Assembly (NCBI GenBank): GCA_003252295.1
Contig: QKEV01000017.1
Span: 34,931 to 98,930, forward strand
Source of the DNA: a bacterium
Lineage (GTDB): Bacteria > Patescibacteriota > Minisyncoccia > Phycocordibacterales > UBA12088
Length of the DNA: 64,000 bases
Direction of reading: 5' to 3'
Part shown: positions 3,831 through 63,442 of the stretch, piece after piece
Numbering within the stretch: the first letter of the stretch is position 1
Layout of the letters: each line of letters opens with the position of its first letter
Made by a program: the position numbers and the translations under genes
Notes under the pieces: generated by a model
Database searches by the model: none
What the model saw: the letters and a program-made list of their open reading frames with translations, nothing else
Told to the model about the DNA's origin: nothing

Positions 3831-3934
3831 ATATTTCCTACACCGCGTCCCTCACTAGGTGTGCCCTAGAGCAACTATCTCAGTGAGATACACAGTGGCA
3901 GTACTGTACTATGTTAGTGAAAATAATGCAAGCC

Positions 3935-4336
3935 CTATGCACTATCTTTATAAAGTTCTTGTAACTTATGAACTGCCTCCTCCACAGTGGGAACAACAAG
4001 TCCACTCTTCTTCACAAAATCAATAGACCATCTTGGTTCTCTATCATCAGGATAAATAATTACCATCCTTTTTGACTGCTCACCTGGAGTTTTGGTACTT
4101 AACCTAAGAAAGTAACCAATTTCAATCCATGTCCCTTCTGATGGTTTTGTACCTACGTTTGCAACCAGAAAATCTGCACTCGAAACTGCTTCTAGGTCCT
4201 GTGGAAAGTAAGTGTCGGGGGATGATTGATCTGAGTCGATATCTGGATCATAAAAAACAAACCCATTCAAATCAGCAAAAGCACTTCTCCAAGGATCATA
4301 CTTGTTTGGTTGTCCTGCCAAGTACACTTTTTTCAT
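3935..4336 (-). CDS. nucleoside 2-deoxyribosyltransferase-like protein
   Basis: MKKVYLAG N-terminus and a WIEIGY block, typical of the N-deoxyribosyltransferase/YtoQ fold. I chose the ATG at 4336 because the upstream ATG at 4363 lies inside the tig terminator hairpin. Confidence 0.45.
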   Translation of the reverse strand: MKKVYLAGQPNKYDPWRSAFADLNGFVFYDPDIDSDQSSPDTYFPQDLEAVSSADFLVANVGTKPSEGTWIEIGYFLRLSTKTPGEQSKRMVIIYPDDREPRWSIDFVKKSGLVVPTVEEAVHKLQELYKDSA

Positions 4337-4408: not shown

Positions 4409-5542
4409 CTAGTGATCGTGATTGCAGTGTTCATCATGCACATGCTTGTCCTCCGTAACTTCAGTGGAGGAGGAAGCTTTCTTCTCCTCTGACTTCTTCC
4501 CCTCAAGCATGTCAAAGACGAGCTCATTAGTCATTTGTGCCGCTACATATATCGCCACTGACTCTTCATTTGCATCCGGGTAGTGTTCTTTAATGTGAGC
4601 AACTTCACGTGCAAGCTTCTCAGTATCTGGCTTAACACCCTCCTTCTTTGCTATCTCGTTAAAAATAAGTTGCAACTTCGCCCTCTTCTCAGCATCCGGA
4701 CGCCACTCTTTACGAAGATCATCCATAGTTTTCTTAATCTGTTCAAGATATGCATCGAGCTCCAAACCTGAGCGAGTTACTCTGTCAGTGAAACTTGCAA
4801 CCATCTGATCTATCTCACCCTCAACAAAGAGACTCGGTACCTCGAGTTTACTCTTTTTGATCACCGCCTCAGCGAGTGAAAGTCGTACTTTCTCTTTCTG
4901 CTTCTGCTCCCGTTCCATCCCTATCTGCTCTTTCATCTTTTCTTTCAGGTCAGCAAGGTCCTTGAATCCTCCAATACTTTTTGCAAACTCATCGTTCAGT
5001 TCAGGTGCAGGTGACTTCTCTTCACCTTCCTGTGCAGGAGGTGTCATCATTTCCTGTAGGCGCCTTAACTCCTTGTTAACATCCTCATCAGTTACTTCTT
5101 CCACCTTCTCTTTAGAGACCTTCTTTATTTCCTCAGCAGCGATCTTTTTGTAGTCAGGGAGTTCAACCACTGGATACACGGCACTCTTGATCTTGAAGCC
5201 AACAGGGTTTCCCGGTGCAAGCTTTGTAATAGTAACCATTGGTCGCCCGACAACATCAAGTTTCTTATCAGTAACAATGTCCGCATAGGTTTTTCCAAGT
5301 GCGAGTTCTGCTATCTCTTTCATTATCTCACTCTCTCCAACCTGTTTTACTATCATTTCTTCAGGCACGTTTCCTTTCCTGAAACCAGGAAGTTCTATAC
5401 TCCTTTGAAATTTCTTTATTGCCTTATTTCTATATGTTTCTGCTACTGCAACAGGTATCTCACCGGTTATTTCAATTTCAGAGCCTGGTAGTTTTTCCAC
5501 CTTCACCTCTGCGTATGTTGTATCTTTTTTTTCTTCAGTCAT
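4409..5542 (-). CDS. tig: trigger factor with His-rich C-terminal tail
   Basis: N-terminal ribosome-binding motif (ELPGFRKGNVP) and a PPIase-like middle region. The C-terminus is unusual: HVHDEHCNHDH. Confidence 0.8.
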   Translation of the reverse strand: MTEEKKDTTYAEVKVEKLPGSEIEITGEIPVAVAETYRNKAIKKFQRSIELPGFRKGNVPEEMIVKQVGESEIMKEIAELALGKTYADIVTDKKLDVVGRPMVTITKLAPGNPVGFKIKSAVYPVVELPDYKKIAAEEIKKVSKEKVEEVTDEDVNKELRRLQEMMTPPAQEGEEKSPAPELNDEFAKSIGGFKDLADLKEKMKEQIGMEREQKQKEKVRLSLAEAVIKKSKLEVPSLFVEGEIDQMVASFTDRVTRSGLELDAYLEQIKKTMDDLRKEWRPDAEKRAKLQLIFNEIAKKEGVKPDTEKLAREVAHIKEHYPDANEESVAIYVAAQMTNELVFDMLEGKKSEEKKASSSTEVTEDKHVHDEHCNHDH

Positions 5543-5710
5543 CCCATTAGAAATTATATTTTAGTAATTTTTTATTTGTGTACTTTTTACAATTAAATCT
5601 TGTGTAGCAACTCCCGTCTGTAATCAATAATCTCTAACGGGACGATGTATGTGCGTGAGCATAACGCGATATGTATCTAAGTGCAACACATGCGATTTAT
5701 ATCATTCAAA

Positions 5711-5736
5711 ACAAAAGACCTTTAAAGGTCTTTTGT
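5711..5736 (-). terminator. terminator
   Basis: acaaaagacc-tttaaa-ggtcttttgt hairpin, followed by ctctaaactc repeats. Paralogous to the tig terminator. Confidence 0.55.
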
Positions 5737-5762
5737 ACTCTAAACTCACACCTCTAAACTCC

Positions 5763-6137
5763 TTACTCTACAAGCATCTGATCAAGTTCAGACTCAATAG
5801 CATTAAACTCACCATCTAGATCACTTAGTTCGGTTGTATCTAAATCATTCTCAATAGCTTCAATATCATCTGAGGTGCTGAGTGGTTCCATCTGATCTGT
5901 AGGTACTGTTACCTTATCTTCTATTTTTTGATCCATTGTAGTGTCCTTCATTTTACCTTGCTCTATGCTAGATCCCCACATATACATGAGTGCAAGCACA
6001 ACGACAACAATCGATATAACAACCCAGATAACAACCTTTTTTGAATCTCCCTTCACTCCCTGCACAGTTACTTGTTCATCCTGCTGTTCAACAGGAGTAT
6101 CTATATTTGTTGTTTCGTTTGTATGTTCTTCATTCAT
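5763..6137 (-). CDS. hypothetical acidic single-pass membrane protein
   Basis: 124 aa. One hydrophobic helix (VVIWVVISIVVVVLALMYMW) and a very acidic C-terminal half. Confidence 0.45.
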   Translation of the reverse strand: MNEEHTNETTNIDTPVEQQDEQVTVQGVKGDSKKVVIWVVISIVVVVLALMYMWGSSIEQGKMKDTTMDQKIEDKVTVPTDQMEPLSTSDDIEAIENDLDTTELSDLDGEFNAIESELDQMLVE

Positions 6138-6162
6138 AGTTGCTGTATTATCTTATAAGAAA

Positions 6163-7329
6163 CTACTCACCAAGTTCCCAGTCCACCTTCTTTCCATTCA
6201 TGCGAACATTCGCTAGTCGTGCCTCCTCACTTGCTTCAATCTGCACCTCAAATGGTTGCATACTTGGCTCCTCAGTACAATTATCAACCTCAGTACCTGA
6301 AGTTGCTACAACATCGATAGTTATTTGTTCAGGGTATGACTCTGCAACAATTGCCATGGTTTCAATATACATACATGCTTCAACAAGTACTTCTCCTTTA
6401 TACGTATGTACACCCTCACTGTATGCATGTGTAATTATTATTGAATCCCCTTCAACCACATTTCTTTCTTTTTCATCATCGTCATCTGTAACAAAAACTT
6501 CCATTGAAGCTTTTATATTTTCAACTACTTCTTGCAACTGTTTATGCACTTCCACAATACTCTCTTTTGTGAGAGCAACTACTTCACGAAGTTCATCAAC
6601 TTGTGCTTTTGGATCTTCAGAAGTGAAGGTGTCCATAGAAACCTCACCTAGAAGCACTATATTTTCTTTAACAGAATCTAAGAGTGTGTACACCTCAGCA
6701 AGTGCCTCACGCGCTTCAGCTAAATCTACATCATGCATCTCCTCAAGTTTACTAATTCGTTCCTCAATACGTGCAGCTATCTGCTCAAGTCGATCAACAA
6801 CAGTATCCATACGGTTAACCATATTCTCGGACAATGTACTCAAGCGCGCTTGCTGCTGAACAGAGAGACGTGCCTGGTACTCCTCTTTACGTTCTTCACG
6901 TTCCTGTTTTCGTTCCTCAAGGCGTGCCTGTAGTTGTTCCTTCTGCTCTTCAAATGACGCTCTCATTTCTTCACGCTGCTGCTCAAAGAGTTCTTGGCGT
7001 TCATCTCTATTCTCTTCAAACAGTTCTATACGTTCTCGTAAGGATGTACTGGCAGCTTCCTGGAAGTCACTCCTTGCCACACCATCCTCGCGGAGTGCAC
7101 CAAATGTTTCTTTACGTTCTTCATAGAGTTCCTTTCGTTCCTCTATCTGCTCGTTAAACAGCGCTTGACGCTCATCCATGTTTGCCTGCATTTGCTCTCT
7201 AAGAGTATCTGCGTCAGTTGTTTCTTCAGCGTGTGCAATGAAAGCTAATGCGCCAAGCACAAAAAAAAGCACGATTGCCATAGCAAGTGGCACAAAACGT
7301 GCTGTTTCAACAGTGTTTTTTTGATTCAT
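6163..7329 (-). CDS. membrane-anchored coiled-coil protein with conserved C-terminal domain
   Basis: N-terminal TM helix, a long E/R/K-rich heptad region, and a C-terminal ~100-aa domain (THAYSEGVHTYKG...NGKKVDWEL). That domain is homologous to the C-terminus of the protein at 44544..46412. Start set at the ATG at 7329. Confidence 0.6.
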   Translation of the reverse strand: MNQKNTVETARFVPLAMAIVLFFVLGALAFIAHAEETTDADTLREQMQANMDERQALFNEQIEERKELYEERKETFGALREDGVARSDFQEAASTSLRERIELFEENRDERQELFEQQREEMRASFEEQKEQLQARLEERKQEREERKEEYQARLSVQQQARLSTLSENMVNRMDTVVDRLEQIAARIEERISKLEEMHDVDLAEAREALAEVYTLLDSVKENIVLLGEVSMDTFTSEDPKAQVDELREVVALTKESIVEVHKQLQEVVENIKASMEVFVTDDDDEKERNVVEGDSIIITHAYSEGVHTYKGEVLVEACMYIETMAIVAESYPEQITIDVVATSGTEVDNCTEEPSMQPFEVQIEASEEARLANVRMNGKKVDWELGE

Positions 7330-10313: not shown

Positions 10314-12074
10314 TTGTACATTGTGAAAACATCCAGCTCCCAACTCAAAAACTTTATTCTCGACTCAGGACTCGTCACCCGTGCTGTCTACACAAAGGCA
10401 GAGAAAACTGCTGATGAAAAAAAGACAACCCCTGAGGAAATACTCGTATCAGAGGGACACATTTCAGAAGATGATCTACGTCGTATGCAAGCATACGTTC
10501 TCGGTGTTCCTTTCATCAACCTTGCAAAGGAAAAGATCGACTACGACATTCTCTCAATGATACCTGAGCCAATTGCACGCACACACAATGTTGTCGCCTA
10601 CAAGAAGAATGATCGTGAGCTCGAAGTTGCCATGCTCGATGTAGAGGACTTGCGCTCCATCGAGTTTATTAAGAAGAAAGTTGGTCTTAAAATTCTTCCC
10701 CGCCTCACTGATGCAGAGAGTATCAAGCATGCACTCTTGCAATACCAAAAGACACTGAAAGACGAATTTGGTGATCTCATTAAACACGAGAGTGCAGCCA
10801 TAACTGCAATTGACGAGGAAGGTGGTGAAGGAGTGTCTGAATCTGACCTTAAAAAACTTGCTGAAGATGTCCCTGTGGTACGTGTAGTAAATGCTCTTCT
10901 CAAGCACGCTATCATACAAAATGCTTCAGACATACATATTGAACCAATGGAAAACGAAGTACTCGTTCGTTACCGCATAGATGGTATCTTGCACGATGCT
11001 ATGACACTTCCTAAGAATGCTGCTGCATCTATCACTGCCCGTATCAAAGTGCTCTCTAGTTTAAAACTTGATGAAAAACGACTTCCTCAGGATGGTCGAT
11101 TCAAAATGGCTGTAGATAACGAAAAGGTAGCATTTCGTGTTTCTCTCCTTCCTACCTACTATGGAGAAAAAACGGTGATGCGTCTTTTAAGAGAGAACGG
11201 TGGTAGCTTCACTCTTGAAAGTCTCGGTTTCCACGGAGAAGGTCTTGAACGGGTACATAAGGCCATGAAACAAACAACCGGTCTCATCTTGACCACAGGT
11301 CCTACTGGTTCGGGAAAAACCACTACCCTCTATACCGTTCTCGATATTCTCAATACACCAGATGTAAACATTTCAACAGTAGAGGACCCTATCGAGTACC
11401 AGATGGCGCGCATCAACCAAACACAAGTGCGACCAGAGATCGACTTCACCTTTGCACGTGGATTACGCGCACTTGTGCGACAAGACCCAGACATTATCAT
11501 GGTTGGTGAGATCCGAGACAATGAAACCGCCAGTCTTGCGGTCAATGCAGCACTCACTGGACACTTAGTGCTTTCTACACTGCATACCAACTCCTCTGCT
11601 GGTGCCGTACCTCGAATGATGGACATGGATGTTGAGCCGTTCCTCCTTTCAAGCACCATACGTGTTGTTATTGCGCAACGTCTCGTACGTAGACTTTTCA
11701 ACAAAGGTGAGCCCTACAAGCTACCAAAAGAAGAGATAGCTTCGCTTGGTGAGTTTATAAATTTCGATATGGTAATGAAAGCTCTCATTGAAGAAAATAT
11801 TGTAGAAAAAAGCACAAAACCAGAAGACCTTCTCTTTTATAAACCAGTCCCAAACGAAGAATCAGTTGATGGATACAAGGGTAGACTTGTAATAAATGAA
11901 GTGCTTACTGTTTCAAGCGCCATTAACGAGTTAGTCCTACGGCAAGCATCAACCGATGAAATTGAACAGCAAGCAAGGAACGAAGGAATGCTCACCATGG
12001 CAGAGGATGGACTGTTTAAAGCAGTTCAAGGAATAACAACCGTTGAAGAGGTACTTCGAGTAATCAGCGAATAA
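10314..12074 (+). CDS. pilB: type IV pilus assembly ATPase PilB/GspE
   Basis: N-terminal GSPII_E_N domain. Walker A GPTGSGKTT, Asp box and His box. TTG start. Confidence 0.9.
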   Translation: MYIVKTSSSQLKNFILDSGLVTRAVYTKAEKTADEKKTTPEEILVSEGHISEDDLRRMQAYVLGVPFINLAKEKIDYDILSMIPEPIARTHNVVAYKKNDRELEVAMLDVEDLRSIEFIKKKVGLKILPRLTDAESIKHALLQYQKTLKDEFGDLIKHESAAITAIDEEGGEGVSESDLKKLAEDVPVVRVVNALLKHAIIQNASDIHIEPMENEVLVRYRIDGILHDAMTLPKNAAASITARIKVLSSLKLDEKRLPQDGRFKMAVDNEKVAFRVSLLPTYYGEKTVMRLLRENGGSFTLESLGFHGEGLERVHKAMKQTTGLILTTGPTGSGKTTTLYTVLDILNTPDVNISTVEDPIEYQMARINQTQVRPEIDFTFARGLRALVRQDPDIIMVGEIRDNETASLAVNAALTGHLVLSTLHTNSSAGAVPRMMDMDVEPFLLSSTIRVVIAQRLVRRLFNKGEPYKLPKEEIASLGEFINFDMVMKALIEENIVEKSTKPEDLLFYKPVPNEESVDGYKGRLVINEVLTVSSAINELVLRQASTDEIEQQARNEGMLTMAEDGLFKAVQGITTVEEVLRVISE

Positions 12075-12075
12075 C

Positions 12076-13293
12076 ATGCCCATCTTTACTTACAAAGCAA
12101 TTAAAGATGGAGAAAAGGAGTCCTATGAAGGAAAAGTAGAGGCAAAAGATCGTTTCGAGGTGTACTCCATAGTACGTAAGGATGGTGCACAAATCCTTAC
12201 GGTAAAAGAAACAACAACGAGTGCTCAGTACACTGAGAAACTTACCCAGTTCTTAAGTCGCGTTAAACAGAATGAGAAGATTGTCTTTATGCGTAATCTT
12301 GGTGCAATGATCCGTGCTGGACTCACCCTCTCAAGAGCACTTTCAGTCATGGAACGTCAGACAAAAAACCCTAAATTTAAAGGTGTACTCGGTGACATAC
12401 AGAAAGATATACAACAGGGTGGTGACCTCAACTCATCCATGAAAAAACATGATGATGTCTTTACTCCACTCATGGTTGCCATGGTTAAAGCAGGTGAAGA
12501 GTCGGGTAGCTTGGCAGAATCCTGCACTATTATTGCCAGTCAGGAAGAACGTTCATACGAACTTAAGAAGAAGATTCGTGGAGCAATGATCTACCCTGGA
12601 GTTATTGTCACCGTCTTACTTGGAATAGGTACCATGATGATGATGTTTATTGTACCGACACTTTCAGCAACATTTGAAACACTAGGTTCAGAGCTCCCAA
12701 TGTCGACACAGATCATCATTAAACTCAGTGACTTTCTTGTTGACTACACCCTACAAACCTTTGGTGCTTTCGTACTTGCCATTGTTCTCTTTATCGCCTT
12801 TCTGAAGACCAAAAACGGCAGCAGGCTTTTTGAAAGTTTTGTTCTTTACATACCTGTTATTGGCACCCTTGTAAAAGAAACTAACAGTGCAAGAACTGGA
12901 CGCACACTTGCCTCCCTCCTCTCAAGTGGTGTTCACGTTCTCCACTCACTTGAGATCACTGAAGAGGTTATACAGAACTCACACTACAAAGAAATTATTG
13001 CGAAGGCTCGAGTACAGGTGCAGGGAGGGTCACCTATTGCTGAAGTATTCGAAAAAGAAGAAAGACTGTACCCACCACTTGTTGGGGAACTTATTGCTGT
13101 TGGAGAAGAAACAGGTAACCTGCCTGACATGCTTCAGGAAGTTGCAAAATTCTATGAAAATGAAGTTGATCAAAAAACAAAAAACATGTCAACTATTATT
13201 GAACCAATGCTCATGCTTGTTGTTGGTTCAGCTGTTGGGTACTTTGCTCTTGCTATGATCAGTCCAATGTACTCTATGGTTGAAAACTTCTAA
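12076..13293 (+). CDS. pilC: type IV pilus inner-membrane platform protein PilC/GspF
   Basis: 405 aa with two GspF repeats and 3 TM segments. Immediately follows pilB. Confidence 0.85.
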   Translation: MPIFTYKAIKDGEKESYEGKVEAKDRFEVYSIVRKDGAQILTVKETTTSAQYTEKLTQFLSRVKQNEKIVFMRNLGAMIRAGLTLSRALSVMERQTKNPKFKGVLGDIQKDIQQGGDLNSSMKKHDDVFTPLMVAMVKAGEESGSLAESCTIIASQEERSYELKKKIRGAMIYPGVIVTVLLGIGTMMMMFIVPTLSATFETLGSELPMSTQIIIKLSDFLVDYTLQTFGAFVLAIVLFIAFLKTKNGSRLFESFVLYIPVIGTLVKETNSARTGRTLASLLSSGVHVLHSLEITEEVIQNSHYKEIIAKARVQVQGGSPIAEVFEKEERLYPPLVGELIAVGEETGNLPDMLQEVAKFYENEVDQKTKNMSTIIEPMLMLVVGSAVGYFALAMISPMYSMVENF

Positions 13294-20599: not shown

Positions 20600-22054
20600 C
20601 TACGGTTGGGTGGTTTTGTGTTTGTACACCATGAAGAGAATTGGAAGCAGATACATGAGCACGAGGAGCCACCATGGTATCGGTGGTACATCTACAGCAG
20701 CAAGGGGTACCGTACTGAAGAGACTCACCATGCCAAACATGTACCTGAGTATGAGGTAGGTAACAAAACCAAACGGCACAGAGAGAACGATATGAAACAT
20801 TTCAAGTATACCGGTGAGGAACCCGGTGAGCATGACAAACGGAACAACTGGTAAGACAAGTACGTTCACCACTGGCGCAACGAGAGACACTCTCCCCATC
20901 TGAAACAAGAGGAGAGGCAAGACTGCAAGTTGTGTTGCACATGTAGCCAGCACAATCTCACGCAGCGTCCATTGCTCAGGTACCCACAGAAAGAATCGTT
21001 CGAGTTTTGGTGCAATAAGTATGAGCCCCAGTGTTGCTATGAACGACAACTGAAAACCTGGATCGTACACGAGCACGAAAGGGTTCCACAGCACCATGAG
21101 TACCCCTGCAAGCATGAGCGCACGCATGAGCATGTACGGACGTTGTATGAAGACGGCGAGCATACCAAGAATCGCCATCACGCTCGCTCGCACTACCGTT
21201 GCACCTGCACCAACCATTGATGCAAAACTTACAACACTGAAGATTCCTAAACCAAAACCAACAGCCCGAGGTAGCACACCTGTTGCACGCACCACAGCAT
21301 TTGCAATGAGGGTGAGGTTGTACCCTGACAGTACAACAATATGAATGATACCGGTGTCGCGAAACGCAGCGAGCCAATCATCACCAAGTGAACGTTTCGC
21401 ACCCACAACCACACCACCTGCAAGTGATGCTTCTGGTTCAGGTACCCGCAGTGAAAGAGCATCGAGCCAACGTTGCTTGAGTGTAAGCAGGTAGCGTTTT
21501 ACAAGGTTACCCTTCACCTCACCTCCACCCTCAAGTGTTGCGTGTAACAGTTCGTAGTGCACACCATCTTTTTTGAGGTACCCCTCGTAATCAAACACCC
21601 TCCCTGTGTCGGTGGTGAATGACTCAGGTACGTGCACCTGTCCGGTAAAGTGCACCACCTCACCATAGGTGAACTCCGGGTACTGTGATGCACGTGCTCG
21701 GTACAACGTACCACTCTCTTCGACACATAGGGTAAGCAGGGTGTACCCATCACGTTCATCAGGTTCAGCACACACCACTGCCACACCCACCACTTCATCG
21801 CCTTCACGAAACACTCGTCCTTGCATGAACTGATTGTCTGCATACTGTGTACGTAGCACACCTAGAAGCAGGGTGAGTAGAAAAAGTCCAAGGTACAATC
21901 CTCGCCAATGAAACCCAATGAGTGCTCCTACTCCAACACTAAAGAGTGCCAAGAGAAACACCAGTGCTAGCGAGTACTCATCGACAATAAAAAACGAGCG
22001 CCAGAAGACGCCCGTAAGTATTCCAAAACAAGTAACGTAAAAAGATGCACGCAT
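20600..22054 (-). CDS. comEC: ComEC/Rec2 competence channel domain (DUF4131 + competence domain)
   Basis: 484 aa polytopic membrane protein. N-terminal DUF4131-like region and a central competence domain with many TM helices. Lacks the MBL domain, which is encoded separately at 17835..18719. Confidence 0.7.
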   Translation of the reverse strand: MRASFYVTCFGILTGVFWRSFFIVDEYSLALVFLLALFSVGVGALIGFHWRGLYLGLFLLTLLLGVLRTQYADNQFMQGRVFREGDEVVGVAVVCAEPDERDGYTLLTLCVEESGTLYRARASQYPEFTYGEVVHFTGQVHVPESFTTDTGRVFDYEGYLKKDGVHYELLHATLEGGGEVKGNLVKRYLLTLKQRWLDALSLRVPEPEASLAGGVVVGAKRSLGDDWLAAFRDTGIIHIVVLSGYNLTLIANAVVRATGVLPRAVGFGLGIFSVVSFASMVGAGATVVRASVMAILGMLAVFIQRPYMLMRALMLAGVLMVLWNPFVLVYDPGFQLSFIATLGLILIAPKLERFFLWVPEQWTLREIVLATCATQLAVLPLLLFQMGRVSLVAPVVNVLVLPVVPFVMLTGFLTGILEMFHIVLSVPFGFVTYLILRYMFGMVSLFSTVPLAAVDVPPIPWWLLVLMYLLPILFMVYKHKTTQP

Positions 22055-22613: not shown

Positions 22614-24326
22614 CTAGAGTGTATCTACGAGTCGAAGTCGGAGCTCTTTGCGACCCATGAAATATGATGCCTCGATGTATGCAACAAAGGTGAGTGTTGC
22701 ACAGTCAGTAAAATCTTTCTCTTCAACACTGGTGAAAAATTCTATCGCCTTCACCCGTGAACCATCACTCTTCGCAAAGGTGAGCTCGAGGTGTTCGTTC
22801 CCTTTTCCGAACATGCGCACCTGTACGAGTGGCACCTGCTCAAACTTAAAAAGTGGTTTTGGATTTCCCTCACCGAACGGAGCGAGCTGCTGTACCTCAC
22901 GGTAGGTATCCCAGCTGACCGCATCAATAGTCAAAATCTCATCAACGAACTTCTCTTGCTTCAGGTTACCCACACCCTGTTTCTTATACGCCTCTGCAAG
23001 TGCCATCTCGAGCGTATGCACCTCACCTGCATCGAGTGAAAACCCACCTGAAAATGCGTGACCACCATACTCGATGAAACGACCCTCAACTGCCTGCATG
23101 AGTTCAAAGAGATTACAGACACCATCTGATCGACATGATCCCTTGATCGTATCTCCACCCTCCTTACCCCAGAGGAACACCGGACGATTGTACTCTTGCG
23201 CAACACTACTTGCGACGAGTCCCACGAGTGATGGTTTCCAATCAGGATGACCCATAACAATAACAGATTGGAGGGAGCCACGTTTCGTGAGTCGTCGTTT
23301 CGTTTCACGTTTCATTGTAGCAACGAGCGTTTTCCGTTTCGTATTGATAGTGTCGAGCTCACGCGCCTTCTCCTCAGCAAGGAGTGTATCGGTCGCAGTA
23401 AGTAGTGTGAACGCTTCACCAGCATGTCCCATCCTACTTGCAGCGTTCACCCTCGGTGCAATCGTGAAAGCAACATCGTCTTCAGTGAGCGTACGTTGGT
23501 TTGCTCGTGCACGCTTCAGGAGTGCATGCAGTCCAAGTCGTCTACTCTTACGTAAGACGACCATACCGAAATGAGCGAGCGCTCTATTCTCTCCCACAAG
23601 TGGAACCATGTCAGCCACTGTTGCCATGCCCACCATATCGAGAAGCCACTTCTCCCACCCGTTCACTGGACGTTTCACTTCCTCAATACCATCAAGTGAA
23701 GCGATGAGTGCCTGCACAAATTTAAATGCTACTCCTGCCCCCGCAAGCATCTTCTCTGGATAGTCACACTGCTCTTGTTTTGGGTTTAGTATTGCGTATG
23801 CAGAAGGCGCCTCATGCGGAGGAAGATGATGATCAGTTATGATAACGTCGACACCATGTTCATTCGCATAGGCAACCATCTCTCTATCGGCAATACCACA
23901 ATCAATGGTGATCATGAGTTTCACACCTTCGCCAACCAATGTATCGATGCCACCCTTATTCAAACCAAACCCTTCCTTGTTTCGGTGAGGTGTGTAGTGC
24001 ACCACCTCTGTATACCCGACCATGGTAAAAAAATCATAGAGCACTACAGCACCTGGAATACCGTCCATGTCGTAGTCACTCCACAACACGATCTTCTCTT
24101 TGTGACGCATTGCATCAAATACCCGATCCACTGCCTTCTCCATATCAAACATGAGAAATGGATCATGGATATCACGTTCCCAATCAGGATGCAGAAAATA
24201 CTCAGCTTGTTCTGCATCAGTAATTCCTCGCAGCAAAAGAAGTCGACGGAGAAGAGGTGGGTAGCTGGTGAGTTTATCATCAAACTGCTTATCTAGTAGT
24301 TTAGGTACGTAGTCACTCATGAGCAT
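22614..24326 (-). CDS. recJ: single-stranded-DNA-specific exonuclease RecJ
   Basis: DHH motifs (DYDMDG, ITDHH) plus DHHA1 and a C-terminal OB-like region. Confidence 0.85.
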   Translation of the reverse strand: MLMSDYVPKLLDKQFDDKLTSYPPLLRRLLLLRGITDAEQAEYFLHPDWERDIHDPFLMFDMEKAVDRVFDAMRHKEKIVLWSDYDMDGIPGAVVLYDFFTMVGYTEVVHYTPHRNKEGFGLNKGGIDTLVGEGVKLMITIDCGIADREMVAYANEHGVDVIITDHHLPPHEAPSAYAILNPKQEQCDYPEKMLAGAGVAFKFVQALIASLDGIEEVKRPVNGWEKWLLDMVGMATVADMVPLVGENRALAHFGMVVLRKSRRLGLHALLKRARANQRTLTEDDVAFTIAPRVNAASRMGHAGEAFTLLTATDTLLAEEKARELDTINTKRKTLVATMKRETKRRLTKRGSLQSVIVMGHPDWKPSLVGLVASSVAQEYNRPVFLWGKEGGDTIKGSCRSDGVCNLFELMQAVEGRFIEYGGHAFSGGFSLDAGEVHTLEMALAEAYKKQGVGNLKQEKFVDEILTIDAVSWDTYREVQQLAPFGEGNPKPLFKFEQVPLVQVRMFGKGNEHLELTFAKSDGSRVKAIEFFTSVEEKDFTDCATLTFVAYIEASYFMGRKELRLRLVDTL

Positions 24327-30740: not shown

Positions 30741-31343
30741 ATGAATGAAGAAACAACACAAGCAAACCTCGTACCAATGGTTATCGAAAAGAGCCAGTTT
30801 GGTGAACGAGCTTTCGACATTTACTCCCGTCTCCTCAAGGAACGTATCATATTTTTAGGAGGACCTATTGATGATTATGTTGCAAACCTTATGGTAGCTC
30901 AGCTGCTCTTCCTTGCATCAGAAGACCCAAAGAAAGACATACAGTTCTACATCAACTCAGGTGGTGGTTCTGTCACAGCTGGTCTTGCGATACTCGACAC
31001 CATGAACTTCATTAAACCTGATGTTTCAACAGTATGTGTTGGTATGGCAGCAAGCATGGCATCAGTACTCCTATCAGGAGGTGCTAAGGGAAAGCGCTTC
31101 GCTCTTCCAAACAGTGAGGTAATGATTCACCAACCATGGGGCGGTGCACAGGGTCAAGCAAGCGACATTGAGATCACTGCTCGACACATCCTTGGTACTC
31201 GTGACCGTTTGAACAAGATACTCTCTGAGAACACAGGGCAGGATATCAAGAAAATTGAAGCAGACACAGACCGCGACTTCTTCATGAGTGCACAAGAGGC
31301 AAAGAAGTACGGCATCATTGATGAAGTGTACAAGACGAAGTAA
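30741..31343 (+). CDS. clpP: ATP-dependent Clp protease proteolytic subunit
   Basis: 200 aa with the GMAASMAS active-site Ser context and a His/Asp triad. Confidence 0.9.
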
Positions 31344-31373
31344 AAGAATTCTGAATATAGAGTTTAAAGAAAC

Positions 31374-31399
31374 AAAAGGAGGGCAGAAACCCTCCTTTT
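31374..31399 (+). terminator. terminator 3' of clpP
   Basis: aaaaggaggg-cagaaa-ccctcctttt perfect hairpin. The same stem recurs twice downstream of tRNA-Gly(GCC). Confidence 0.65.
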
Positions 31400-31541
31400 G
31401 TTATTGATGTGCGGTCACCCAAAGGGCATAAGAACCCGCACAGAAACAAATGTTTCACCGACCCCCTTCTTGTTCGATTCTACATCCTCAAAGCAAGTAC
31501 ACACAAAGGGTGACCAGTAGGTCACCCTTTGTGTGTACTTG
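31400..31541. repeat. degenerate tRNA-flank repeat element
   Basis: gttattgatgtgcgg...cttgttcgattctacatcc resembles the element downstream of tRNA-Gly(GCC). It is followed by the perfect hairpin cacaaagggtgacc-agta-ggtcaccctttgtg. Confidence 0.4.
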
Positions 31542-31612
31542 TGCGGGTAGGGGGAATCGAACTCCCGTCCTCTGCTTGGAAGGCAGATATTCTACCACTA
31601 AACTATACCCGC
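31542..31612 (-). tRNA. tRNA-Gly (anticodon TCC)
   Basis: Cloverleaf: acceptor gcgggta/tacccgc, anticodon stem tctgc/gcaga with loop CTTCCAA, T arm gggag-ttcgatt-ccccc. No encoded CCA. Confidence 0.8.
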
Positions 31613-44543: not shown

Positions 44544-46412
44544 CTACTCATTCTCTCCCACATCATCTCCTGTAGCAGGTTCACCTTCTTCTTCCTTACT
44601 TACCGCATCTCCAAGCACTTCAGTTTGTACCAAGTCCCATGGTATCTCAACACCATTTAGGTATACATGACCAAGCTGCACATCTTCTGGTGCCTCAATA
44701 CTCGCTGAATAACTCTTCTCTGTTTGGACCTGTAAGCATCCAACCTCATCTTCATTACTGTCGATTGTTATAGCAAGTGACACTACACCATCCTCTTCTG
44801 AGGCAACAGTACCAACAACATGGCACGGGGTCTCAAGTTCTAAACTTCCTGTGTATGTGTGTACACCCTCAGTGTAGGTATGCGTGAGTACATACCTCTG
44901 CTCTTCCGTTGTCTCATCAGCTTGTACATCAGTAGTTTCTTCTTGTGGTGTGTCAGTAATTTGTTCACCTTTTTCTTCAATCTCTCCTTCTAATGTCTCT
45001 ATGGTACGCTGTATCAACTTTAGCGCCTTTGTGAAGAGTTCTTCTGCATCGTCGTAATCCTCTAACACAAATGCTATGTCTCCACGAAGTTGGTAAGCAA
45101 CCGCATCTTTTATATGAGCATTTACCTGTTCAACAGTACTCACCTCGAAACCATTTTTTGTGAGAAGCAGTGTACGAGCATGCTGTATATCCGCTTCCAC
45201 TTCAGCACGAAGCTGTGTAAGTTCTGCAACATGTTCATCGACAAACTCTGTATCTTCTTCACCCTCACCTGTCGTCACAGTCTCATCCTCCTGAACACCC
45301 TCTTCTACCACCTGTACTTCTTCAATACTTTCATCCTCCATCCGCACCGTTGTGTCTTCAGATGGATATATCTGTACAGAAAATAGCTTTGCCACCTCTA
45401 AAAGCTGTACCACCTTTTGCAAGAGTGCTACAGCCTCCCTATAGACACTGTACGCATCCGAGTAGTTGTACTCTCCAAGTGCAGTATTCCCTTCTGCAAG
45501 CAACACCTTCCCATGTTCGATCTGTGCTGATACCTGCATACCCGTCTCAGAGGATGGATCTAGTTCTCCATAAAGATTCTCAGCATTTTCAAGCAACTCG
45601 AACACTCGAGCTTGAGCACGATACGTTGCACGTACACGCATGTTAGCAGAGTTGATACCGTCCTCATCTACAGGTGCAGTAACATCATCTGTACCTTCAG
45701 TTCCCTCAACTCCTTCTTTTTCAGTCGTCCCTATTTTCTCCTCTGCATCCTCACGTATCTTCCCCACCTCCATAGCTGCAGTACGGACCTGCTCTACTAG
45801 TTCGATAGAACTTTCCTGCGGTTCATCTTCTGATTCAACAATGAGTCGAGCAAGTACTGCTTCATGTGCATCAAGTGATTCTTCAAACTCACTTGATGCC
45901 TCTGCTGCAAGTACTGGGTCTGTTGCTTCATATGCAAGCACCTGTTCAACCACTGCCTCAGTATGCTCAGCAAACAATTTTGATACTTGCTCACGTGCAT
46001 CATCATCTAGTTTTCCTTCAGCAGCAAGCTGACTCGCTTCAACGAGTCGTCGTTTTGCACGTTCCTGTTCCCAAGCCATACGGTCTGCTTCATTGAGAAA
46101 TGCTGTTTTTACCTCCTCATTTATATTTACCTTTACTCCGTAGAGTAAATCTCCTGGAAGCGCATCACCTGCCGCGAAAGAAACACCGAACGTGCTAGTG
46201 GTAAGTACCGTAGCAATAACAAGGGCTCCAGAAACATGATGCATACGAAAAAATGGCAAGAATGATGGTTTGCTTACCTGTGTATCTACTGAAGATCGTA
46301 TAGGTTTGTACTCCATGTAGGAGACAATTGACTCACGCATACGAGCTTTGTCACTCTCTTCTAGTTTTACGTATTCTGTTCCTCTTTGGAACTGTGCTTC
46401 TAATTTTTTCAT
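44544..46412 (-). CDS. putative anti-sigma factor: membrane-anchored coiled-coil protein with conserved C-terminal domain
   Basis: Its ATG at 46412 abuts the TAA of the upstream ECF sigma gene (TAAATG). Cytoplasmic N-terminus, one TM helix (ALVIATVLTTSTFGVSFAAG), a long acidic coiled-coil region, and a C-terminal domain THTYTEGVHTYTG...NGVEIPWDL paralogous to 6163..7329. Confidence 0.55.
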   Translation of the reverse strand: MKKLEAQFQRGTEYVKLEESDKARMRESIVSYMEYKPIRSSVDTQVSKPSFLPFFRMHHVSGALVIATVLTTSTFGVSFAAGDALPGDLLYGVKVNINEEVKTAFLNEADRMAWEQERAKRRLVEASQLAAEGKLDDDAREQVSKLFAEHTEAVVEQVLAYEATDPVLAAEASSEFEESLDAHEAVLARLIVESEDEPQESSIELVEQVRTAAMEVGKIREDAEEKIGTTEKEGVEGTEGTDDVTAPVDEDGINSANMRVRATYRAQARVFELLENAENLYGELDPSSETGMQVSAQIEHGKVLLAEGNTALGEYNYSDAYSVYREAVALLQKVVQLLEVAKLFSVQIYPSEDTTVRMEDESIEEVQVVEEGVQEDETVTTGEGEEDTEFVDEHVAELTQLRAEVEADIQHARTLLLTKNGFEVSTVEQVNAHIKDAVAYQLRGDIAFVLEDYDDAEELFTKALKLIQRTIETLEGEIEEKGEQITDTPQEETTDVQADETTEEQRYVLTHTYTEGVHTYTGSLELETPCHVVGTVASEEDGVVSLAITIDSNEDEVGCLQVQTEKSYSASIEAPEDVQLGHVYLNGVEIPWDLVQTEVLGDAVSKEEEGEPATGDDVGENE

Positions 46413-52343: not shown

Positions 52344-52350
52344 AATTTTT

Positions 52351-52620
52351 CCGGGACACTTCGTTATCGAACTCGTTCATCTTCGACTCGTTCAATGTAG
52401 ATAATGTGGGAGCCGAGAATCGTCCCCGGGATGACTAAGTATTTTCTTGCCGGGACGCTATGCTATCGAACTCGCTCACCTTCGACTCGTTCCTCGCTCA
52501 GGTTCACTCTCTAAGAACCCACGGTTCTCAGCGTTCGTCGTAAACTCCTCACAGCTCTCCTTCAAGGGAAAACTAGAGTTTTCCCTACCCCTTTCCATGT
52601 TCGATTCCCGGCGACTCCGT
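52351..52620. repeat. tRNA-flank repeat element(s) downstream of tRNA-Pro
   Basis: 52456..52607 is homologous to the 142-bp insert at the tRNA-Gly(GCC) locus (gctatcgaactc...agaacccacggttctcagcgtt...ggaaaactagagttttcc...cctttccatgttcgattc). It is flanked by tRNA-Pro T-arm-like halves (gccggga / ccggcgactccg). A partial tandem copy lies at 52351..52440, with cttcgactcgttc repeated 100 bp apart. Confidence 0.6.
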
Positions 52621-52670
52621 AAAAATACAGAAAAACCTACAGAACATTTCTGTAGGTTTTTCTGTATTTG

Positions 52671-52741
52671 TCGGGGAGCCGGGAATCGAACCCGGGCCAC
52701 ACGGTCCCAAACCGCGTACACTACCACTATGCTACACCCCG
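52671..52741 (-). tRNA. tRNA-Pro (anticodon TGG)
   Basis: Acceptor cggggtg/ctccccg with one mismatch, anticodon stem cgcgg/ccgtg with loop TTTGGGA, T arm cccgg-ttcgatt-ccggg. Preceded by a terminator hairpin. Confidence 0.75.
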
Positions 52742-52818: not shown

Positions 52819-53214
52819 CTAATCAAGTAGTACACTCTCAAGCACTTTGACGTAGACCTTTTTACTTTCGGTAAGTATCTGCACAACTATTACATCCACT
52901 GTCCAATCATGTGCACCACCAAGTCCTCGCTCGAGCAAATACACCTCGATCACTCTCTTCAGCCGTGTCTTTTTATTTCTATCTATATGGTCTTCTGGCC
53001 GATAGGTTTCTTCACCCTCGTGTAAAACACTAAATATTTCGGAGGATTTTACTTCTACAAAGTGCAGTACATCGTCTTTTATACACACAACATCCAACTC
53101 TCCGCACTTTTTTCTATAATTTCGCTCAACTATGCGATACTTTCTGTTTTCTAGATACTGTGCAGCAATATCCTCACCAAGCTGTCCTATGGAAATATGC
53201 TTATTTTTAGCCAT
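52819..53214 (-). CDS. yraN: YraN-family (UPF0102) endonuclease-like protein
   Basis: 131 aa. GEDIAAQYLENRKYRIVERNYR...GELDVV...FVEVK pattern. Confidence 0.7.
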   Translation of the reverse strand: MAKNKHISIGQLGEDIAAQYLENRKYRIVERNYRKKCGELDVVCIKDDVLHFVEVKSSEIFSVLHEGEETYRPEDHIDRNKKTRLKRVIEVYLLERGLGGAHDWTVDVIVVQILTESKKVYVKVLESVLLD

Positions 53215-54975: not shown

Positions 54976-55075
54976 TTCTATACCTCCCCGAAAAGGTTAT
55001 ATTTCATGGTCAAATTTCTAAACGAAAAATAACACAATGTAATTATTTAACAAGAAATCCATACATATACAGAAA

Positions 55076-55341
55076 CTACTCAACAACAAAAGGAGGGTAT
55101 GAACCCTCCTTTTGTTGTTAATGTGCGGGTAGGGAGACGCTTCGCTATCGAACTCACTTCCTACGATCGCTCTCTGAGAACCCACGGTTCTCAGCGTTTC
55201 GCTTCGCTCCACTGCTCTCCTACACAGGAAAACTAGAGTTTTCCTGACACCTTTCCATGTTCGATTCTCCCTACGCAAGCTACTCAACAACAAAAGGAGG
55301 GTATGAACCCTCCTTTTGTTGTTAATGTGCGGGTAGGGAGA
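55076..55341. repeat. 62-bp perfect direct repeat (terminator hairpin + tRNA-Gly 3' end) flanking a 142-bp insert
   Basis: ctactcaacaacaaaaggagggtatgaaccctccttttgttgttaatgtgcgggtagggaga occurs at 55076..55137 and 55280..55341. The insert 55138..55279 ends in an inverted tRNA-3'-end mimic (ttcgattctccctacgca). Confidence 0.75.
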
Positions 55342-55398
55342 ATCGAACTCCCGTCTACGCCATGGCAAGGCGTCATCCTACCACTAAACGATACCCGC
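55328..55398 (-). tRNA. tRNA-Gly (anticodon GCC)
   Basis: Acceptor gcgggta/tacccgc, anticodon stem acgcc/ggcgt with loop TTGCCAT, T arm gggag-ttcgatt-ctccc. Confidence 0.8.
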
Positions 55399-55463
55399 AA
55401 TATTTACGTGATACATCATAGCGTCTGAACCGCTAAATGTCTACTGTTTGTTCACAATTTACA

Positions 55464-58379: not shown

Positions 58380-58560
58380 TAGGAACGTTTATTACACCGC
58401 CAGGACTTGCCTCTCCCTACGGTCGAGATCAATGTTTACATTGTCGCTTCGCTCTGTGTAAACATTAGTCCTTCGGTTCTAGTTCTGGACGCAAAACATA
58501 TTTATGTTTTGCTCGGGTGCACATATAACAAAAACCCCAGGAAGGGGTTTTTGTTATATG
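58380..58560. repeat. tRNA-flank repeat / hairpin region downstream of tRNA-Arg
   Basis: Contains caccgccaggacttgcc (a tRNA-Arg 3'-half mimic), gtcgcttcgctc (shared with the Gly-locus insert), and the perfect 23-bp inverted repeat ggtgcacatataacaaaaacccc/ggggtttttgttatatgtgcacc, which incorporates the tRNA 3' end. Confidence 0.45.
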
Positions 58561-58632
58561 TGCACCCGCCAGGACTCGAACCTGGAATGACGGTTCCGAA
58601 GACCGTTGTGATATCCATTTCACCACGGGTGC
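58561..58632 (-). tRNA. tRNA-Arg (anticodon TCG)
   Basis: Perfect acceptor gcacccg/cgggtgc, anticodon stem acggt/accgt with loop CTTCGGA, T arm ccagg-ttcgagt-cctgg. Confidence 0.7.
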
Positions 58633-62566: not shown

Positions 62567-63442
62567 CTACTCTGTGGAACCAACACACTCCTCTATACCA
62601 CCAATATACTTCTCCATAGTGCTTTCATGCTGGTAACCTACCTTCTCCTTAAGAACAGTTGCATCTGTTTCACCACTCAAAAGGCCGGCTACATACATGT
62701 TTCGGAAGCTCTGCGGGGTAACACGCACTTCGACACTCGCTCGTTCTGCGCACTGTTTTACAATACGTTGTACTGACCGAGGGGTTAAACGGAAACTACT
62801 ACTTCGCTTACCATTGTTCACAAACAGGGCATCATCAGTATCTTTTCTTCCAAGCAAGTAGGACTCAAGTGCTTCTACACACTCCGGAAGAAGATCCACG
62901 GTACGTTGCACCTTTCCCATAACACTGAGTTTTGTACGTTGAAAAGCACTCCTGTTGAGGGCACATAGTTCACCCACCTTTACCCCTGTTGTACCGAGTA
63001 GCAAAAGAATGGCTCTATCTCTATATGATTTTCCATCTACACCAGTAATAGTCTGGTACATACTCCAAAAATCACCTTCATTTGCGACAGAGAGCGGTAT
63101 GTTCAATGATTGCTCGAGAGTCACCTCTTTTGGCAACAAAGTGTTGTGACCACACTTTTTTAGGTACGCTAAAAATACACGTAGTGCAACAAGGTGGTAA
63201 TTTTGCGTCTTTACCGACAAGGTTTCATTTCTTTGTGTCTCAACACTGAACACGTTTTGTTCTTTCAGCCAAACACGAAACATGTTTACTGACTCAGGGG
63301 AGATGGCACGCACATGTTCCACCTGTGTCACCTTTAGAAACCTATCAAGGTATCGGGTGTAGTTTTCAATGGTTTTTTTACTCTTCTTGTTCTGTGCAAG
63401 GTGTTTTAAAAAACCCTCTTTGAGTGTAGTGATCTCATTCAT
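62567..63442 (-). CDS. tyrosine recombinase (XerC/XerD-like integrase)
   Basis: N-terminal SAM-like core-binding domain (TIENYTRYLDRFLK). C-terminal catalytic domain with R...K...HxxR (SFRN) and a terminal HESTMEKY tyrosine. Confidence 0.7.
   Translation of the reverse strand: MNEITTLKEGFLKHLAQNKKSKKTIENYTRYLDRFLKVTQVEHVRAISPESVNMFRVWLKEQNVFSVETQRNETLSVKTQNYHLVALRVFLAYLKKCGHNTLLPKEVTLEQSLNIPLSVANEGDFWSMYQTITGVDGKSYRDRAILLLLGTTGVKVGELCALNRSAFQRTKLSVMGKVQRTVDLLPECVEALESYLLGRKDTDDALFVNNGKRSSSFRLTPRSVQRIVKQCAERASVEVRVTPQSFRNMYVAGLLSGETDATVLKEKVGYQHESTMEKYIGGIEECVGSTE

Follow-up and report, generated by a model that had tools for sequence, protein, structure and literature searches.

Genomic islands that integrate into tRNA genes (tDNA islands of the Islander type, with tyrosine integrases) regenerate their target gene and displace a fragment of it (PMC4383910). 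Here we describe a 204-bp unit that follows a tRNA-Gly(GCC) gene in a 64-kb stretch of contig QKEV01000017.1, which we will call the window. The window is chromosomal DNA of a bacterium from the candidate phyla radiation (CPR, or Patescibacteria). On balance, we lean towards reading the 204-bp unit as a miniature, non-autonomous integrative element, non-coding and site-specific, which has integrated here and whose kind is widespread in the CPR.

Three other kinds of systems are relevant. Integron attC sites are imperfect inverted repeats that are recognised as a folded single strand, with bulged bases as marks; their sequence is variable while their structure is conserved. Cis-mobilizable elements (CIMEs) are flanked by att sites, have no recombination genes, and rely on the integrase of a related element; they are kilobase-sized deletion derivatives with a recognisable parent. 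CIMEs of the integrative and conjugative elements of streptococci are mentioned in PMC5704250. CTX phage carries two inverted dif-like sites, about 90 nt apart and with unequal central regions, which form a forked hairpin in single-stranded DNA; the hairpin is recombined with a duplex target by one strand exchange, and inverted, non-functional copies are left after integration (PMC3089051, PMC3442271).

Anatomy of the tRNA-Gly(GCC) locus

With the gene at the left, every copy of the element has the order gene-T-S-j-T'-core-T*-(old S). T is a gene segment of 15–21 nt; S is what remains of the gene end (trailer and terminator in the case of tRNAs); j is a junction of 0–17 nt; T' is an inverted copy of T; and T* is a direct, often diverged, copy of T. 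In the sense of the tRNA, the features of the tRNA-Gly(GCC) locus are:

55415–55443: promoter-like site of tRNA-Gly(GCC), from a promoter scan.
55327..55398, minus strand: tRNA-Gly(GCC), the functional target gene (ARAGORN; Rfam tRNA model, 62.4 bits).
55280..55341, minus strand: repeat copy 1, attL-like, with T (tRNA nt 60–73) and S (trailer and intrinsic terminator hairpin, 55286–55323); it completes the working tRNA gene (exact repeat).
55278..55279, minus strand: 2-nt junction (CT on the minus strand) from the end of S to T' (sequence).
55259..55277, minus strand: T', predicted to pair with the tRNA 3' half across the terminator (inverted-repeat search, duplex energies and fold).
55156..55258, minus strand: type-A core, with ATGGAAAGG.G, hairpin 1 (55225–55246), GUGnAGGA, a variable linker, and hairpin 2 (55174–55194, apical AACCGUGGGUU) (alignments, covariation, and 109.8 bits with our covariance model R1).
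55138..55155, minus strand: right end of the insert, with a T-loop remnant (GAGTTCGAT, 55147–55155) and a 9-nt bulge (AGCGAAGCG, 55138–55146) (repeat search).
55076..55137, minus strand: repeat copy 2, attR-like, with the displaced T* and the displaced trailer and terminator (hairpin 55082–55119) (exact repeat).

The two repeat copies are 100% identical over 62 nt (70 nt if three mismatches are allowed), and an exact repeat of this length cannot arise by chance. Each copy comprises tRNA nt 60–73 (CCA is not encoded), a 4-nt spacer, a terminator hairpin with a 17-bp stem, and GAGTAG. Between the copies is a 142-bp insert (55138–55279), which together with one repeat copy makes up the 204-bp unit. 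Reading from the tRNA, the spacer, the terminator and GAGTAG are followed by CT, T', about 100 nt with the two hairpins, the tRNA-like stretch GAGTTCGAT, the 9-nt insertion AGCGAAGCG, and then the exact repeat of the tRNA end, spacer, terminator and GAGTAG. T', at the tRNA-proximal end of the insert (GTTCGATTCTCCCTACGCA on the plus strand; TGCGTAGGGAGAATCGAAC in the sense of the tRNA), is the inverse of tRNA positions 53–73 with two C missing (it aligns as TGCG--TAGGGAGAATCGAAC), and 16 nt are 100% complementary to 55333–55348. The T-loop remnant and 9-nt bulge of the right end are also found in two other copies (beside tRNA-Pro in the window and beside tRNA-Gly in contig L017, both described below). 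A preliminary description of this DNA had placed the 62-bp repeat, the inverted copy of the tRNA end and the tRNA itself, all of which are borne out by repeat searches, ARAGORN and Rfam.

The 142-bp insert has no open reading frame (ORF) apart from one frame that spans the tRNA. This frame (55018–55368, minus strand; 116 amino acids with a TTG start) takes in the core, the two copies of the terminator and 42 nt of the tRNA; it is probably spurious, not a gene.

The identity of the repeat copies, 204 bp apart, might suggest a local tandem duplication or an assembly artefact without wider meaning. We see almost no chance of this, as the same core is present at other loci and in other genomes, and an independent assembly branches at the repeat. 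Specifically, a Logan contig from an independent short-read assembly of the same strain (L021, 1–35) breaks inside the repeated terminator, which fits a real repeat and not a scaffolding artefact. Another Logan contig (L022, 1–45) ends inside tRNA-Arg. The units place perfect repeats and long palindromes beside tRNA genes, and assemblies break there.

A family of elements in CPR genomes

The preliminary description had suggested searching for further copies of the insert, and there are others in the window. The same pattern lies downstream of all four tRNAs in the window. A terminator comes first, then the tRNA's own 3' half in inverted orientation; a stretch rich in hairpins leads on to a direct copy of the 3' end. 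Short-word BLAST against the window found the core of the insert again behind tRNA-Pro(TGG), with 89% identity over 54 nt and 97% over 29 nt, and a decayed copy lies behind tRNA-Gly(TCC). The three sister loci are:

52345..52668, minus strand: array behind tRNA-Pro(TGG) (52670–52741), 107 bits with R1. In order: terminator 52627–52665, T' 52599–52619, type-A core (hairpins 52565–52586 and 52511–52531), T* 52449–52473; further out, a degenerate tRNA-Pro 3' remnant (52405–52430) and a second partial right end (52351–52374).
31371..31540, minus strand: degenerate type-A copy behind tRNA-Gly(TCC) (31541–31612), E = 0.006 with R1. In order: new terminator 31501–31534, T' 31472–31489, decayed core, T* 31400–31416, old terminator 31371–31402.
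58393..58557, minus strand: same architecture with a different core, behind tRNA-Arg(TCG) (58560–58632), from a repeat search. In order: terminator 58525–58557, T' split by an inserted hairpin (58475–58521), T* 58393–58407.

The stacking behind tRNA-Pro, of a full type-A unit, a remnant and a partial right end, suggests repeated arrivals at one site. Behind tRNA-Gly(TCC), the old terminator is 89% identical to the terminator of tRNA-Gly(GCC) (55286–55323 and 55082–55119), so the two Gly loci share a trailer or have exchanged it; tRNA-Gly(TCC) now uses the other terminator (31501–31534).

To find type-A copies elsewhere, we scanned public genomes and metagenomes with patterns derived from the core. 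The scans added five contigs with this core, of which three belong to named CPR lineages, and walking along conserved synteny added another:

L003, Saccharibacteria: type-A core at tRNA-Gln.
L004, Parcubacteria: type-A core at tRNA-Val.
L012: type-A core at tRNA-Trp.
L013 and L014, Kaiserbacteria: type-A core at the 5' end of murD.
L017: type-A core at tRNA-Gly(GCC), reached by synteny walking from the TrmB-like protein; its TrmB homolog is 51% identical to the window's.

One core is thus present at six targets (Gly, Pro, Gln, Val, Trp and murD) in six contigs. Nine of the 11 loci from the genome scan have no tRNA and resemble chance matches. We read about a dozen elements in total. Among the type-A copies, a 42-nt block of the core is 76–98% identical, a range that is partly ascertained by the search pattern; since the copies outside the window were found with core-derived patterns, the apparent conservation of this block is inflated.

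All copies are 110–250 bp and lack any ORF. In every copy, T' abuts the same core nucleotide (C|ATGGAAAGG) and matches the local target. The core is about 100 nt and contains two hairpins that covary: 96% of cells in the alignment are paired, and 7 of the 18 pairs have changed on both sides. None of 500 shuffled controls reached this score, and in controls with slid pairings, the proportion paired drops to 29–60%. Each of the core variants also folds on its own. Built on six copies, R1 detects each of the seven good ones (68–110 bits) as well as the decayed copy at tRNA-Gly(TCC).

We also found a second type of core, type C, which has GCCGGAG, a hairpin, CGAGGCGGGGTCGCG and a long hairpin, in an identical T'/T* architecture. 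Type C is present at tRNA-Leu in L018 and L020 and at tRNA-Arg in L016, and a diverged form is at tRNA-Pro in L017.

Could these units instead derive from a large island or prophage that lost its interior by deletion, leaving attL and attR side by side? Tandem partial repeats of tRNAs are typical of tDNA islands (PMC4383910). However, all of the copies are within 110–250 bp and have a conserved, structured core with no gene fragments; we found no match to the core in collections of phages, plasmids or viral contigs; and no copy has an adjacent integrase. A deletion remnant is therefore very unlikely. The preliminary description had offered either an integrative-element remnant or a MITE-like element (MITE, miniature inverted-repeat transposable element), and of these, it is the small, MITE-like nature that holds up and not the remnant of something large.

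Evidence for insertion

In L013 and L014, the element is at the 5' end of murD and is oriented opposite to the gene. In L013, a 39-nt block (3903–3941) is repeated at 4082–4120 with four transitions, and T' (3958–3972) is the exact inverse of 3903–3917. Past the repeat, the two copies encode distinct N-termini: MNYRQ... (MNYRQYFKNKKVTVMG) is in use and MQDWRI... (MQDWRIYFKNKKITVMG) is displaced. In the relatives L018 and L020, whose MurD proteins are 67% and 64% identical, the 5' end of murD is uninterrupted and there is no type-A core. Furthermore, the N-terminus of MurD from L020 (MQDWKSYFKGKKVTVMG) matches the displaced remnant in L013. The element has thus supplied a gene end of foreign origin and displaced the native one. 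Going by these sequences, the murD copy is a true insertion. (In L013, the gene order at 5453–7066 is 16S rRNA, tRNA-Ile, tRNA-Leu, murD.)

Other sites also vary between genomes. L013 has no element at tRNA-Leu(CAG), where L018 and L020 each have one, so the empty sites that the preliminary description had proposed to look for do exist in relatives, for murD and for tRNA-Leu. At tRNA-Arg(TCG), the window carries the odd type of core, L016 carries type C, L015 has T' only, and L017 has nothing. At tRNA-Pro, type A is beside the gene in the window; in L017 the unit beside the gene is type-C-like, and a decayed, type-A-like one lies beyond it. At stacked tRNA sites, the newest unit is nearest the gene. 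When we surveyed all tRNAs in the loci studied (about 16), eight had a strong direct copy of the 3' end downstream (score of at least 13, as against 9 or less upstream) and the others had none.

The repeats that flank the elements are 15, 17–22, 39 or 62 bp and can carry foreign sequence. In L004, L013 and L017, S differs between the two repeat copies, which implies that the element imports its own gene end. By analogy, a regenerated target, a displaced fragment and imported ends are the hallmarks of integrative elements at tRNA genes (PMC4383910), here reduced to 110–250 bp and gene-less. That the core recurs at further tRNAs and in further CPR genomes, each time with arms specific to the target, supports the earlier idea of an insertion that targets tRNA 3' ends and regenerates its target.

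The same products might arise passively, with no dedicated machinery, if DNA taken up by natural transformation were recombined by RecA, the conserved tRNA body providing homology on the left and T* on the right; T' would then be a by-product of template switching at a quasi-palindrome around the terminator. The window does encode ComEC, PilB/PilC and RecJ. The order gene-T-S(new)-...-T*-S(old) is the exact product of a double crossover with tRNA(1–53) and T* as the arms, and the length of the repeat varies from 15 to 62 bp, as for homology-dependent events. In the copy at tRNA-Arg, the palindrome is unbroken from the terminator into the acceptor end. But in most copies the right arm is just 15–20 bp. 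Also, passive uptake does not explain the jumps to new targets (six for one core), the constant core nucleotide at the end of T', or the compensatory conservation of the core hairpins. We consider this route unlikely.

Pairing and folding of the arms

In the predicted fold, the tRNA 3' half, the terminator and T' form a near-continuous hairpin of about 40 bp (DNA dG of -36.4 kcal/mol; z = -12.5), and an RNA that reads through the terminator would lose the tRNA cloverleaf. T' is predicted to pair both with T and with T* in all seven copies, at -17 to -31 kcal/mol. The pairing is stronger with the gene's T in six of the seven copies (at tRNA-Gly(GCC), -29.5 kcal/mol for T'/T and -22.8 kcal/mol for T'/T*) and is equal in the other. 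In L017, T' retains the complement of the T-loop and T* has lost its T-loop part. The better fit of T' to T than to T* suggests that T-S-j-T' is one hairpin unit carried by the element and that T* is the displaced resident copy. In all of the tRNA copies, T' and T* start at tRNA positions 53–60; the exact repeat at tRNA-Gly(GCC) starts at position 60.

The arms have recurring bulges. A 9-nt mini-hairpin of the AGCGAAGCG type is found in T* of the Gly and Pro copies, and longer hairpins flanked by AGC..GC lie inside T' of the tRNA-Arg element in the window and of the tRNA-Pro unit in L017. The 9-mer AGCGAAGCG contains GCGAAGC, which is an unusually stable DNA mini-hairpin. This 9-mer occurs four times in the 64 kb (55138–55146, 55200–55208, 58445–58453 and 31095–31103), and three of the four are inside elements. 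We also noticed motifs similar to GAGCGAAGCGA in L004 and in the tRNA-Arg element.

Most of the differences between T' and T* are compatible with G-U or G-T pairing on the core-sense strand (3/3 for murD and 2/3 for tRNA-Trp). One variant of hairpin 2 also has a G-U pair on this strand, which is the tRNA-sense strand. In this model of the pairing, we have weak evidence that the core-sense strand folds, either as RNA or as single-stranded DNA. A mimic of a tRNA minihelix on the antisense strand was dropped, as the differences in the murD arms are mismatches on that strand.

We also compared the murD target, ACCCAACCCC (L013, 3903–3912), to the tRNA target, GTTCGATTCC (positions 53–62). Their purine/pyrimidine patterns agree at 10 of 10 positions, so that they differ by transitions only; we noticed this post hoc. 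Given this pattern, T' of the murD copy (GGGGUUGGGU) could pair with the T-loop and T-stem of a tRNA by wobble.

If the core-sense strand folds as RNA, then the element might be a structured RNA that is useful to the host. The core, closed by a T'/T* stem, would be a small RNA gene: a decoy, regulator or processing element that mimics the acceptor/T minihelix. This would fit with the covarying hairpins, with the G-U pairs on the tRNA-sense strand in hairpin 2 and between T' and T*, with the retention of the element at tRNA-Gly(GCC) in the distant relative L017, and with the unit in the window ending with its own terminator. On the other hand, around half of the tRNAs that we surveyed have no element, and degenerate copies exist. 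The element is also at a protein-coding gene, murD, in the opposite orientation; foreign gene ends are imported and arrays are stacked; there is no matching Rfam family; and T' pairs better with the gene than with T*. We think that a host RNA is quite unlikely.

The preliminary description had named a fixed, conserved structured RNA, such as a processing signal, as the outcome that would speak against an insertion. The insert at tRNA-Gly(GCC) of L017 and the covariation go part of the way towards this. Still, the absence of elements from many tRNAs, together with the site at a protein-coding gene and the foreign gene ends, makes a fixed processing signal unlikely. Scanning both core types against Rfam 15 (including self-cleaving ribozymes, Y RNA-like families and tmRNA), we found that only tRNA reaches its threshold; the best other matches are at about half of the threshold or less. 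A core that resembles the hammerhead or hepatitis delta virus (HDV) ribozymes was dropped because the junction sequences do not fit and there is no Rfam match.

RNA might instead be a mobile intermediate, with its 3' end set by the terminator, which is reverse-transcribed with template jumps and recombined back into the chromosome. In 12 of the 13 tRNA-linked copies that we read, S ends 0–17 nt past the T-tract of the terminator, or about where the transcript would end, and the wobble-compatible differences lie on the sense strand. However, S of the murD copy does not end in a terminator, and we saw no reverse transcriptase among the larger ORFs of the window. Nor could we devise a route by which T' would come out in its observed orientation beside a core in the sense orientation. 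RNA-mediated mobility seems distinctly improbable. A version in which a tRNA primes reverse transcription, with T' as the primer-binding site, was dropped: T' has no complement of CCA, and the relation of the murD copy to the RNA of its gene is the opposite.

Comparison with known systems

Like tDNA islands, these elements target the 3' part of tRNA genes from the T-loop, restore the gene, leave direct repeats at both ends, and stack when they arrive repeatedly. The regenerated gene end and the displaced fragment form direct repeats here as well (62 bp at tRNA-Gly(GCC)), and this holds at 8 of about 16 tRNAs surveyed. In tDNA islands the identity block starts at the T-loop or the anticodon loop; here it starts at tRNA position 60. 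Unlike tDNA islands, which span kilobases and contain an integrase gene beside the att site, the element is 110–250 bp and gene-less, with the nearest recombinase gene 7 kb away. It also has an inverted copy of its target, and one core serves many targets, including the 5' end of a protein-coding gene.

The inverted copy is shared with CTX phage and other integrative mobile elements exploiting Xer (IMEX). To our knowledge, the route of CTX phage is the only mechanism that needs an inverted copy of the target. As in IMEX, there is no recombinase within the element, and two inverted target-like sites, about 90–200 nt apart, can pair in a single strand, with a bulge. The predicted folds give such a target-mimicking hairpin in all seven copies. 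What insertion leaves behind is likewise one functional target together with inverted copies that do not function, and both the scale and the bulges match. But IMEX target dif and are recombined by XerC/D, while the targets here are tRNA genes and murD. Also, the arms vary from copy to copy, the whole element is only about 200 nt, and both a single-stranded form and dependence on Xer are conjectural here.

Integron attC sites share the imperfect inverted repeats, the bulges, and the conservation of structure over sequence, but the elements lack the context of an integron platform or array, and their arms are copies of the target. Instead of the attC motifs R'' (RYYYAAC) and R' (GTTRRRY) at the outer ends, we found ATCGAAC/GTTCGAT, which match at 6 of 7 positions and are at the inner end of the stem.

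The elements also resemble MITEs and the palindromic elements derived from insertion sequences (IS) of the IS200/IS605 group, in that they are small, non-coding, multi-copy, rich in hairpins, and presumably mobilised in trans. MITEs have element-specific terminal inverted repeats and a target-site duplication of fixed length, but here the arms are derived from the target and the flanking duplication is 15–62 bp and partly foreign. IS200/IS605 elements have subterminal hairpins without flanking repeats and insert 3' of a fixed tetra- or pentanucleotide; our elements have two hairpins, but with long repeats and target-derived arms. No parent IS was found: we saw no related autonomous element with a transposase and shared ends among the larger ORFs of the window or in the phage, plasmid and viral collections. 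Finally, the elements are like CIMEs in their att-like flanks, their lack of recombination genes, and their proposed dependence on an enzyme supplied in trans, but they have no known parent and have a conserved, structured core of their own.

As each comparison fails at a defining trait (an integrase, dif, a fixed target-site duplication with its own inverted repeats, the attC consensus, or an Rfam match), the element is not strictly a tDNA island, IMEX, MITE, attC site or member of an Rfam family. The end product is like that of a tDNA island, and the use of a folded strand is perhaps like that of IMEX or attC. Our literature searches turned up no described equivalent in the CPR. Beyond the preliminary description, we add that the units make up a family, that each target has arms matched anew to it, and that the tRNA 3' half, the terminator and T' form one long hairpin.

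A proposed mechanism

We propose that the free element, which is presumably circular, reads T-S-j-T'-core, where T-S is a copy of the end of the target gene (here, tRNA-Gly positions 60–73, the trailer and the terminator). A single Campbell-style crossover within the block of identity in T, or T-S, would insert the element. The T-S carried by the element would complete the gene (attL), and the resident T*-S would be shifted downstream (attR). Later arrivals would stack beside the gene in the same way. The integrated structure is, as far as its sequence goes, the expected product of a single crossover between a circle of T-S-j-T'-core and a chromosomal T-S. The recombinase would be supplied in trans.

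More conjecturally, the element may be active as a single strand that folds so that T' pairs with T, imitating the double-stranded target, with the bulges as structural marks. Insertion would then be by exchange of a single strand, as for attP(+) of CTX phage or for attC of integrons. The terminator in S would keep T' out of the tRNA transcript.

Several points weigh against this proposal. For tRNA-Gly(GCC), we saw no free or circular form and no excision junction, and we did not find a strain-level empty site in L015, L016 or the Logan contigs: L015, whose TrmB homolog is 69% identical, has no tRNA-Gly at the corresponding position; the contig of L016 ends within the tRNA; and in the Logan contigs, from the same strain, the sequence stops inside the repeat. 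No copy has a recombinase linked to it, and the Xer-family gene that is 7 kb from the insert is not tied to the element. The targets have no obvious recombinase site in common, and with more than nine different targets, a sequence-specific Xer recombinase or integrase is hard to reconcile with the data. Above all, the model does not explain how both arms are re-matched to a new target. The copy at tRNA-Gly(GCC) persists in L017, where the neighbouring TrmB-like protein is just 51% identical, and this persistence could reflect selection for a function in the host instead of mobility. Lastly, our dozen or so elements were found with patterns that favour conserved cores.

One way to account for the changing arms is that the element is programmable: the target would be set by the pairing of T' and T with the two target strands, not by the sequence preference of a recombinase, and each move to a new site would rewrite the arms. 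Such an element would be a minimal guide-bearing system for DNA insertion, of about 200 nt, and it would be harmless at gene ends because it carries the replacement end. Hints of this are that one core has at least six precisely abutting pairs of arms, that bulged mini-hairpins recur in the arms, and that the murD and tRNA targets differ by transitions only, which wobble pairing could bridge. We regard a programmable element as improbable. Two related ideas were dropped. An RNA-guided nuclease of the TnpB/IscB type would cut its own site, as the filled site keeps an intact target. In guided transposition like that of CRISPR-associated transposons (CAST), the gene end S would be native, and here it is imported.

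Other features of the window

The genes of the window are typical CPR housekeeping genes and include those for EF-G, NusA, trigger factor, PilB/PilC, ComEC, RecJ, PGK, TIM, ClpP, RNase Y and a class II CCA-adding enzyme. Homologs of the TrmB-like protein that neighbours tRNA-Gly(GCC) are from named Parcubacteria or Pacebacteria. A phage origin of the window was rejected, given this gene content and the lack of phage matches.

The only recombinase among the larger ORFs of the window is the Xer-family tyrosine recombinase (62567–63442, minus strand). Its best NCBIfam matches are XerA, XerD and XerC, all of which are under their curated cut-offs. The genes for PilB/PilC-type pili, ComEC and RecJ (10314–13293, 20600–22054 and 22614–24326) make up a set for DNA uptake and single-strand processing, which would be relevant if the elements enter cells as single-stranded DNA.

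A gene for a UPF0102 protein (YraN-like nuclease fold) lies directly upstream of tRNA-Pro both in the window (52819–53214) and in L017 (5958–6398). We rejected a link to the element: UPF0102 and tRNA-Pro have conserved synteny, which is probably unrelated. In L003, a 90-amino-acid ORF with a GIY-YIG-like N-terminus (YFVYIL..GSLYTG; about 120–392, minus strand) starts around 40 nt downstream of the element; it has no match to an NCBIfam family, and a link was dropped. In L018, an ORF for a LAGLIDADG homing endonuclease (391–990) is upstream of tRNA-Ile and is probably inside an rRNA insertion. Such ORFs are common in rRNA insertions in the CPR.

Finally, ATCGAACATGGgAAGGTGT at 45503–45521, within a gene for a 622-amino-acid TPR/DUF5667 protein (44544–46412, minus strand), is identical at 18 of 19 positions to the T'/core junction of the Gly element (E = 0.017 from BLAST and 0.04 from R1). 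There is no similarity in the flanks on either side, and this match could be due to chance, a pseudo-site, or a fossil.

Significance

The genomes of CPR bacteria are tiny, and their mobile DNA is poorly known. In this setting, the ~200-bp insert is notable as it has no genes, repairs the gene that it enters, carries a mirror image of its target, and uses one core at many targets across CPR lineages. Such units also yield spurious ORFs and pseudo-tRNA fragments in the annotations of CPR genomes. If our proposal is confirmed, then these would be among the smallest site-specific integrative elements that we know of, and they would point to machinery that acts in trans and possibly recognises its targets by pairing.

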